Below the pieces are notes generated by a model. That model saw nothing but the letters and a program-made list of their open reading frames with translations, was not told the DNA's origin and made no database searches. Of a DNA stretch of 64,000 bases, positions 33,242 through 36,200 are shown piece after piece; positions within the stretch are counted from its first letter, which is position 1, and the number at the start of each line of letters is the position of its first letter. Location: contig NC_134025.1 of assembly GCF_964204645.1 (NCBI RefSeq), positions 7,812,001 to 7,876,000 on the forward strand, in the 5' to 3' direction. The translations under genes were made by a program, and so were the position numbers. This DNA comes from Tubulanus polymorphus. Its lineage: Eukaryota; Animalia; Nemertea.

Positions 33242-36200
33242 ATGTTTGATAAGATCGACAAGTCCAAAGTATCGGTTCTATTTGCCGTATTGGAGAGCCT
33301 TATATTGGTTTTCATGGTGAGTGAACTCCTTCAATTAGATTAACTGATTTCATAATAATGAAAGCTTACAAACAATATATTTAATAACATTAGAATGAAG
33401 TAAGAAGGAATTTCCGTTGTTTCCTGTGTTCAACTAATTATACTGTTATTGTCATGATTGCATTTCCATACATATTTCAAAATATTAAGAGAATAGTTGC
33501 TTCAGCCTACACTGGGAGAACCATCCTTTCCATTCATGAAATATTTGTTTTCTGATTAGATTTCGTTCTCGTGATGTTTTCAGGGCAATGTCCACGGCGA
33601 TGGGAAGCTTCGTGTAGCATTGTCGAGTTCATCGGAATTCCGACATCGTCCTCATAATTGGCAAATCTTGCTCGTCAGAGAAGAAGTGTATCTTTTAGAA
33701 AAATGTGCCATGAATTCAAATGCCAAAACGTGTGAACTGCCATTTGAGCAAACTACAGTAAGCAAGAACTCAATCAACACTCCCGTTGCTTCCTTTATTT
33801 CTACGTAAAAAACATGTAATCATCAAAAAAGGTTTGTTAAATTGATAGGATCTCCATATTGAAATACTATTTCAAACGTCCAAGAACAGATACAAACTAA
33901 ATTTTGATGAATTACCACGAATTCAAGATTTAGACATAAGCGTTAAATGTTCCGCGAACTTTTACGGGCCAGAATGTGATAGATACTGCAATGTCGACGC
34001 TGCTGATGCTCATCGACTTTACTGCGATAGCAACACCGGCATGATGCTCTGTCAACCTGATCGTATGGGGGTAAACTGTTCCGAAAGAGGTTAGTCTTTA
34101 TCAGAGATGTACGGTCCCCGTTTATAAGAAAAGTAGTCCTTGTAAATCTTTTAGAATGAGCAAAATTAATTATTGCTTCTTCCCTCTGACGAGAACTGAC
34201 ACAAACAGAACATCAACTGTTTCACTATGTTCAAACATCAGTTATTAATCATGCTGATTTCAATGTAGCGTATGGACCGTTTTTGGACGAAAAAAAGGCG
34301 AAGGGTTTTTTGGCTCCGAATCCGCACCGACGGGTAAAACGAGCAAATTTTGGTTTTCTCGAAGAGCTACTGCAAGGTAACAAAGAGAGGGAATGCGAAG
34401 AGGAAACGTGTAATTTTGAAGAAGCGAGGGAGGTTTTCGAGAATGACCAAGCCACAGTAAGTCTTATAAGATAGCACATGATAATATAGCACTAGCGCTT
34501 TCAACTAAAGAATATGATTTCCAATAAACATCAATACCGATATCGTTTTGTGGTTTCTAGCATCGAAAATGGAAACATTTATATATTTCTTTCATTTCAG
34601 CACAGATACTGGGCAAGAAAACACGGTTCGTTAATAAATTAATTCAGCTCCCATTATTCCTACACATGCACGACGTTATGAGATAGAATTTTGAGTTATC
34701 ATGCCCTCTAAAATTGTCTTGCAGACCCTAATGATTGTAGTCCGTACCCGTGCTATGTGACAGGGTCATACCGATGCACAGACTTGTTTCGGGCTTTCAC
34801 ATGCCACTGCAAACCTGGATGGTCAGGAAAAACATGCGGGATAAGTGAGCTTACTTTTGAAAATATAGAATCATTCGCCGTTTCATTTTTCCAATTACAT
34901 AATTTAAGTGGTTTTCCTCATTTACACAGACGATAAGCTCTCAAAGCTTTTTATTCTATGAATTTCAGATATAGATGACTGCGAGTCAGTTATATGCCAA
35001 AACGGAGGCCACTGCTCGGTAAAGGAATGCGTTATTTAAAGAACTTCATTAGATTAATTGATAATAGCAATTGCGATGAATCACTACTAATCGACCTTAT
35101 CATCTTTTTCAGGATCTGATAAATAACTACAAATGTAACTGCAAACCCGGCTATACCGGAAAACTCTGCCAAAGTGAAATCAACGAATGTTTATCGAATC
35201 CGTGTAAAAATGCTGCTAAATGCGTTGATAAAATCAATGGATGGGAATGCAAATGCAGACCAGGATACACAGGTTTTCTATCGTAGAAATCAAACACTTT
35301 CTACGGAAAGCAATTTACCTGATCTTCTCTCTTCTTTTTGCTTTCATAGGAAACCAATGCGAAACGAATATAAATGAATGTCAACTGGTTCAATGTCATA
35401 ACGGGGGAACTTGTAAAGATTTGGTGAACGCTTTTGAGTGTAAATGTCTACCCGGATATACTGGTTCCAATTGTCAAACTGATATAGACGAATGTGCGCC
35501 CGCTCCATGCGAAAACGGTATCAAAGTTTATAAGGAAGTTTTCTAAAAGTTTCAACTACAATAATGGGTTTTCGTATCGAGGCTATGTTTTATACTTTAA
35601 CAGGAGGTCAGTGTCGTGATAAAGTCAACGATTTTGAATGTATTTGCAAACCTGGCTATTCCGGAAAGAGATGCAACATCGATATTGATGAATGTGCCCC
35701 AAAACCTTGTAAGAATGGCCAATGTATCGACAGAATCAATAGTTATTTGTGTTCATGCCAGGCAGGTGAGTTTCAAGCTGAGAATACGGTAGCATGGCGA
35801 CATTCTCACTAGCAGCTGCAGGAGATGAAAAAGGACTCCTTGGTTACATGCTCGTTGTAGTTCATTACCAATCTCGCAAATTGAGTTTCATGAACACACC
35901 TTGAGTTAAACTTGATTAATATACAATGATATTTCAGGATTCGTTGGCCAAAACTGTCAAACGAATGTCGACGACTGTCTATCGAAGCCGTGCAAAAATG
36001 GTGCCAATTGCACTGATGGTGTAAATGATTTCCAATGTGGCTGTAATCCTGGTTGGACTGGCAAAACGTGTGAAATCAATATCGATGAATGTAAAAGCAA
36101 TCCCTGTGTAAACAATGGACACTGTGAGGATCAGTTAAATGATTTCAAGTAAGGAACCATCTTCTAGTCGTTCTTGTAAAGCTGCATCCTTTCTAAACAA

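Follow-up and report, generated by a model that had tools for sequence, protein, structure and literature searches.

A Notch-ligand-type C2-DSL front end joined to a propeptide-Gla-EGF module in three predicted membrane proteins of Tubulanus polymorphus

Results

Three tandem genes with one layout

The window, a stretch of 64,000 nt from Tubulanus polymorphus contig NC_134025.1 (positions 7,812,001 to 7,876,000), is animal DNA with a GC content of ~37% and short introns. It carries three tandem genes, the neighbouring paralogues A, B and C (Table 1), and for each of them we obtained a stop-free open GT-AG model. The layout is common to all three: signal peptide, C2, DSL, carboxylase propeptide, RVKR, Gla, EGF stalk and transmembrane helix. 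In gene C the C2-DSL-propeptide-Gla part is followed by 6 EGF repeats, putative VWC-like and Jagged-like membrane-proximal domains and the transmembrane helix. One database protein, RefSeq model P0001, is matched at 100% by the propeptide exon of gene A; its NCBI name is "uncharacterized protein" of Tubulanus polymorphus. This 1571-aa model is a chimera of the 5' part of A (33242-36146), the middle of B (45910 onward) and the 3' part of C (51182 to 54418). A second RefSeq model, P0003, comprises the first 292 residues of B, ending after the first EGF, and is identical to the N-terminus of our gene B. The RefSeq annotation thus conceals three genes inside a chimeric model.

Table 1. Features of genes A, B and C (positions within the window)
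Feature	Position	Strand	Details
Gene A	33242-38785	+	20 exons, 1108 aa
Gene A exon 1, signal peptide	33242..33316	+	phase 0 after; start shared with RefSeq P0001
Gene A exon 2, first half of shortened C2 (MNNL-like)	33584..33757	+	no Pfam match; A-B alignment and model, Foldseek and Atlas matches of paralogue B
Gene A exon 3, C2 end and DSL	33849..34089	+	Pfam DSL, 30.6 bits; aligned to Jagged/Delta chains; phase 1 after
Gene A exon 4, propeptide, RVKR and most of Gla	34269..34456	+	phase 1 in, phase 0 out
Gene A carboxylase recognition core	34280..34312	+	Phe, Ala, Phe, Leu at -21, -15, -12, -11
Gene A RVKR proprotein-convertase site	34331..34342	+	motif
Gene A exon 5, 25-nt aromatic-stack exon of Gla	34601..34625	+	phase 1 after; 25 nt in B and C too
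Gene A exons 6-18, 17 EGF repeats (102 Cys)	34725..37980	+	first is of the Gla-partner type
Gene A exon 20, transmembrane helix and tail	38208..38785	+	three NPxY, two Yxx(L/I)
Gene B	42484..48329	+	20 exons, 1089 aa; architecture and intron phases those of A
Gene B propeptide-RVKR-Gla exon	43744..43943	+	Pfam, motif
Gene B core / RVKR	43755-43787 / 43815-43826	+	motif
Gene C	49068..54421	+	18 exons, 915 aa; exon 1 a prediction only
Gene C propeptide-RVKR-Gla exon	50634..50812	+	Pfam, motif
Gene C core / RVKR	50636-50668 / 50684-50695	+	motif

Several other features surround these genes. On the minus strand, a class C GPCR gene of at least two exons (ANF receptor, NCD3G, 7tm_3) occupies 805-7650, and 60629-61825 holds a 399-codon open frame for a GPCR of the rhodopsin type. 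Calmodulin-like EF-hand genes are found just downstream of gene C (54810-55718 minus; 59584-59811 plus), and a Tctex-1 family gene lies at 56733-57419 (plus). The segments 12139-12713 and 13327-13901 form a 575-nt inverted repeat, 98.6% identical, that is possibly a foldback element, and a long AT dinucleotide run (31757-31931) lies upstream of gene A. Short high-copy interspersed repeats, seen as very high contig depth with loose ends, are present at 41946-42077, 44430-44620 and 51099-51162; one high-copy repeat sits in gene C, inside the intron that separates the 25-nt Gla exon from EGF1.

Predicted junction between the DSL and propeptide exons

The segment that holds the propeptide and most of the Gla domain in gene A is one whole exon, preceded by AG and followed by GT. 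In all three genes the phase is 0 after each of the first two exons and 1 after the DSL exon; the propeptide exon, phase 1 in and phase 0 out, precedes a 25-nt exon with phase 1 at its end. The intron that separates DSL from propeptide measures 179 nt in A, 86 nt in B and 97 nt in C, and in each case it has canonical ends and contains no polyA hexamer. Gene A has neither an in-frame Met nor a phase-0 acceptor between the DSL exon and the propeptide; no in-frame route in it bypasses the DSL exon. A possible phase-0 acceptor at 43710 in gene B could yield a conventional signal-propeptide-Gla isoform, and gene C has two poor ones.

Both RefSeq models connect DSL and propeptide identically. Contigs from two public runs, which belong to different studies and carry no RNA record, also skip GT-AG introns: 15 of 49 intron-skipping joints are shown, two in A (runs X2 and X5, in the EGF region) and 13 in B, and neither the DSL-to-propeptide junction nor the 5' joints of gene A are among these 15. 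The sole contig hint of a DSL-propeptide joint comes from X5, where one contig matches up to 34087 and continues with 24 extra letters. The junction itself is predicted from gene structure.

As RefSeq demonstrably mis-joins A, B and C, the joints shown include no direct sighting of this junction and B may have an alternative acceptor, one could ask if the DSL and Gla parts are separate genes or isoforms whose fusion is an annotation artefact. However, the introns concerned are very short, canonical and of matching phase 1 in three diverged paralogues, they lack a polyA hexamer, and A has no other in-frame entry. We consider an artefact highly improbable.

A Notch-ligand-type front end

Pfam recognizes a DSL domain in the exon upstream of each Gla exon, at 30.6 (A), 27.9 (B) and 37.2 bits (C) for a cut-off of 24.2 bits, and a DSL profile built from A, B and C matched only Jagged, Delta and Serrate chains in the PDB (11 matches). 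No Pfam MNNL match was obtained in the front end, and a PDB profile search with the three exon-2 pieces gave nothing meaningful. An alignment-guided model of P0003, that is, of the N-terminus of B, reached a mean pLDDT of 68.5 and a pTM of 0.39 (a single-sequence fold reached pLDDT 33). In it, residues 30-129 form an eight-strand sandwich, the propeptide is helical, and RVKR lies in a coil modelled at low confidence. When this model was searched with Foldseek, Jagged1 came first (E 7.9e-6), followed by the factor VIIa light chain, DLL4 and many C2 domains, and residues 7-185 of the Atlas model align with Delta-like clusters. Because Pfam DSL, the PDB profile, the P0003 model, Foldseek and Atlas agree, we take the front end to be C2-DSL; the C2 assignment is made by model and structure matches in B and by alignment only in A and C.

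The N-terminal piece holds 8 (A), 10 (B) and 8 (C) Cys. Since an even count fits pairing within C2 and DSL, no disulfide tether is evident, and the stalks of A and B, with exactly 102 Cys each, equal to 17 EGFs, also speak against one.

An internal propeptide, a convertase site and a coagulation-factor-type Gla domain

All three propeptide cores and RVKR sites lie where the initial annotation had placed them, and Pfam and the motif positions confirm that RVKR stands directly before the Gla domain in each gene. Pfam Gla scores are 49.8 (A), 44.2 (B) and 43.3 bits (C), with a cut-off of 27 bits, and the solved structures closest to the Gla exon of gene A are factor IX, factor X and TMG2. The four carboxylase recognition positions (Phe, Ala, Phe, Leu) are kept, 4 of 4, in A, B and C, and the core residues of all three fill the recognition sites PRS1-3 as these are defined in PMC13187478 (excerpt).

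The core F-x5-A-x3-L had been likened to that of factor IX. The likeness agrees with the factor IX PDB chain, but the spacing to the cut does not follow it: Phe stands at -21 (A), -24 (B) and -20 (C), against -16 in factor IX, so that the linker from propeptide to cut is 4-8 residues longer. A longer linker has a precedent, since the PRRG2-like database match P0140 has its Phe at -19. As evidence in itself the bare motif was discarded, its 20 six-frame matches being at chance level (mean 16.3, maximum 23 in 60 Markov control sequences). The compound pattern of a core with a nearby R-x-K/R-R occurs 3 times, against a mean of 0.23 and a maximum of 2 in the 60 controls, but it was chosen post hoc and its copies are paralogues. 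The true support for the propeptide core is its position directly before a Pfam Gla domain.

The Gla domains retain the features of the coagulation-factor type. A and B have all ten canonical Glu (7, 8, 15, 17, 20, 21, 26, 27, 30, 33), gene C has 9 of 10 and a one-residue insertion, and Asn occupies Gla residue 2 in all three. The hydrophobic residues of the omega-loop and the aromatic stack are those of coagulation factors, not of osteocalcin/MGP. The RVKR codons vary among the genes at silent sites only, and RVKR is invariant while the surrounding linker varies. In gene C the P1' residue after RVKR is Lys, which furin disfavours at this position.

Because the recognition positions, the Glu residues and RVKR are kept and gene A has no DSL-skipping route, carboxylation and convertase cleavage are likely, as judged from these sequences. 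The carboxylase tolerates sequence N-terminal to the propeptide in MGP (PMC13187478, excerpt). A cut after RVKR would matter since a retained propeptide disturbs the omega-loop of the Gla domain in factor IX (PMC11838247, excerpt). Alternatively, the proteins could be carboxylated and stay largely uncut, or the two pieces could stay bound, C2 and Gla making a two-point membrane-binding tip, or cleavage could be a regulated cell-surface switch. The C2 domains of Notch ligands do bind liposomes containing phosphatidylserine (PMC5538765, excerpt), MGP retains its internal propeptide (PMC13187478, excerpt), and the long linker and the unfavourable P1' residue of gene C point the same way. We nevertheless find this unlikely: RVKR is invariant amid a variable linker, there is no spare Cys for tethering, and retention would run into the disturbed Gla fold just mentioned.

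Selection between genes A and B

Silent sites are saturated between A and B (pS 0.7-1.0). The Gla domain with its stack is the most conserved part (65% identity, pN 0.22), followed by DSL (pN 0.27), the EGF stalk (0.30) and the propeptide (0.33). Constraint on C2 is weak (30% identity, pN 0.47, pS 0.69). By these substitution rates the Gla module is clearly maintained and the DSL is not merely decaying; its conservation on a par with the EGF stalk argues that it does more than cap.

The released piece and Notch

In the initial annotation the cut-off C2-DSL piece was a possible diffusible modulator of Notch; as such it would be an agonist or an antagonist. A ligand activates Notch by pulling on it, which a released piece cannot do. 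Sequence and fold both identify the front end as a genuine C2-DSL, its DSL is under purifying selection, and in C. elegans soluble DSL proteins without DOS act on Notch, with convertase release of soluble Notch modulators proposed for that animal (PMC2504490, excerpt). Jagged1 contacts Notch through DSL residues F199, R201, R203, D205 and F207 (PMC5669421, excerpt). According to our alignment four of these five are replaced in A, B and C, respectively by Asn, Asn and Ala at 201, Asp, Asp and Asn at 203, Ala, Leu and Phe at 205, and Ala, Lys and Ile at 207, and only the aromatic at 199 is kept. In Jagged1 the single change Arg203Lys already abolishes Notch binding (PMC5538765, excerpt), and in A and B this residue is Asp. 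The DOS-bearing EGF1-2 that come after DSL in fly and vertebrate ligands (PMC2504490, excerpt) are absent at this place in A, B and C, where the propeptide, Gla and the Gla-partner EGF are found instead. With four contact residues lost, DOS repeats absent and C2 weakly constrained, the proposal is weakened, and we regard action of the freed piece on Notch as doubtful. The piece would most likely be a folded prodomain or a binder of a non-Notch partner.

A long EGF stalk and an endocytic-type tail

The stalk of gene A consists mostly of calcium-binding EGF repeats of the Notch type. The first EGF has a 7-residue C2-C3 spacing, found in 6 of 38 Gla-EGF1 matches (two of them from this locus), the other 32 having 5. 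Pfam scans of P0001 and P0003 gave no match to the EMI domain. The tails of A and B have in common an acidic YExL segment and repeated NPxY; that of gene C has YxxL and no NPxY. The membrane-proximal region of gene C, where a VWC domain would be expected in a Jagged, resembles Pacifastin (E 0.013) and JAG1 (E 0.048), neither of which reaches the Pfam cut-off; PF23575 is listed for P0001.

In the engulfment receptors CED-1 and MEGF10, NPxY stands behind 17-18 EGF repeats and binds CED-6/GULP (PMC1762421, excerpt). Like CED-1, MEGF10 and Draper, our proteins combine a long EGF stalk, a transmembrane helix, NPxY (A, B) and YxxL; unlike them, they lack EMI, have EGFs largely of the calcium-binding Notch type and bear a Gla domain at the tip. 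The analogy is one of function only. NPxY is a general endocytosis signal and does not specify engulfment. Instead of phosphatidylserine, the processed Gla tip might have a protein partner or calcium mineral as its ligand, or it might tether vesicles or cells without uptake. Hardly any ligand of an invertebrate Gla protein is known to have been tested, and gene C has no endocytic NPxY; yet the Gla domain, with its omega-loop hydrophobics and aromatic stack, is of the coagulation-factor type and not of the osteocalcin/MGP type, which makes such ligands improbable in our estimate.

Occurrence and relation to known families

Word-seeded protein searches found no DSL+Gla protein outside Tubulanus polymorphus: 1 of 18, 2 of 3273 and 1 of 1070 candidates were retained, and apart from a turtle coagulation-type protein, one of the two, these were the species' own RefSeq models. 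With HMMER, 1.84 billion representatives were scanned and 870 matched, of which the best 150 were considered; when Pfam was run on 62 of these 150 and on P0001, DSL appeared only in P0001 and P0003. Among 16 Gla loci of a metagenome scan, several of them lone exons, none had DSL ahead of Gla, and Atlas searches (clusters of at least 50) returned Delta-like or coagulation-type clusters, none combining both families. The Gla proteins of Ciona are not known to contain DSL. The literature searched, mostly non-subscription, showed no DSL+Gla protein among the entries listed, and Gla domain with Jagged retrieved unrelated papers only. The word Gla does not occur in the available text, without supplements, of the Notch-ligand surveys PMC2770060, PMC5356439 and PMC10970066, and no such protein is described in the excerpts of PMC9643190, PMC3141003, PMC4555119 and PMC13172424. 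DSL+Gla is thus a real and apparently undescribed combination of two known families, seen in one species so far.

With factors VII, IX and X, protein C, protein S/Gas6 and the tunicate Gla-EGF proteins, A, B and C have in common the propeptide core, the dibasic site, a Gla domain with ten Glu (A, B), the aromatic stack and EGF1. In Gla-domain vitamin K-dependent proteins the propeptide follows the signal peptide, whereas here C2-DSL intervenes, with ~135-150 folded residues before the propeptide; also unlike vitamin K-dependent Gla-EGF proteins, A, B and C have no protease or LamG and are membrane-anchored via a long EGF stalk. A Gla cassette behind a folded domain was found in no other Gla-domain protein compared. 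PRRG1-4 and the tunicate-type Gla receptor kinases are likewise type I membrane proteins that bear Gla at the tip once the propeptide is gone, and PRRG2-like propeptides too have a longer linker. In these proteins, however, Gla lies beside the membrane, the propeptide is N-terminal and the tail has a PY motif or a kinase, while A, B and C have a stalk of 6-17 EGFs and, in A and B, NPxY tails. Metagenome contigs L002:223-387, L006:79-240, L004:115-267 and L016:322-429 encode tunicate-type Gla-transmembrane-kinase and secreted Gla-EGF proteins, the receptor kinases compared above being those of L002 and L006.

Delta and Jagged/Serrate provide the other half of the comparison: signal, C2, DSL with six Cys and YxG, EGF repeats and transmembrane helix are all present, and C adds VWC-like and JAG1 similarity, both weak and below the Pfam cut-off. 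The differences are the Gla cassette and cut site between DSL and stalk, the lost Notch-binding face, the missing DOS EGF1-2 and the lack of an ATEV end. Under the scheme of PMC5356439 (excerpt), A, B and C would be "DSL-like" proteins.

Exon borders bear on the origin of the cassette. At the vertebrate-type loci L001 and L007-L009 the propeptide-Gla exon is also phase 1 in and phase 0 out. Of 9 metagenome loci examined, three have an acceptor placed 2, 5 or 8 nt ahead of the Phe codon, and three have a phase-0 donor that follows the EVF motif by 18 nt; these borders, of the vertebrate type, agree with ours. Because the propeptide-Gla exon has the splice phases of vertebrate-type Gla exons, the combination probably arose by exon shuffling. 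In EGF1 our locus has the 7-residue C2-C3 spacing in common with the tunicate secreted Gla-EGF proteins, one of which, Clavelina P0017, is 45% identical over 112 aa. With exon borders equal to those of vertebrate-type Gla genes and a first EGF of tunicate type, the evidence points to a cassette that predates the protostome-deuterostome split. In the simplest history, a likely one, a Jagged/Delta duplicate would have acquired the old propeptide-Gla-stack-EGF cassette at the phase-1 intron behind its DSL exon and then duplicated. Gene C probably retains its Jagged-like C-terminal part from that ancestor.

Discussion

Altogether, the sequences suggest that A, B and C are single-pass membrane proteins in which a Notch-ligand-derived C2-DSL front precedes a propeptide-Gla-EGF module, that they are likely carboxylated and cut at RVKR, and that A and B then become Gla-tipped receptors for phosphatidylserine-exposing membranes; we favour this prediction as a whole, if only slightly. 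It would comprise three steps. Very probably, vitamin K-dependent carboxylase in the ER would bind the internal propeptide and convert 9-11 Glu to Gla. A furin-type convertase would then, in good probability, cut after RVKR, freeing the Gla N-terminus and releasing a piece of ~160-175 residues (C2, DSL and propeptide). The initial term "self-splitting" is therefore wrong, as it is a furin-type enzyme and not the protein itself that would make the cut. Finally, the Gla domain on its 17-EGF stalk may well bind anionic membranes of other cells or debris with calcium, the NPxY/YxxL tail recruiting PTB adaptors for uptake or signalling. From its sequence gene C appears to fit a receptor less well: it has no NPxY, Lys at P1' and one canonical Glu missing.

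A bolder reading, tentative and in our view rather unlikely to hold in full, is that exon shuffling made a two-in-one precursor. One convertase cut would both free a C2-DSL signal and arm a membrane-anchored, vitamin K-dependent phosphatidylserine receptor, so that a single chain would in effect combine Gas6-like recognition with a tail of the engulfment type. The readings weighed here overlap and are not fully exclusive.

The combination bears on the role of the Gla domain in animals without a clotting cascade, and it is probably a clear-cut example of exons shuffled between the Notch-ligand and Gla families. If the two-in-one precursor is true, a protostome would have coupled a Notch-derived signal to the detection of cells that are wounded or dying, which would show the role of the Gla-EGF cassette before blood clotting.
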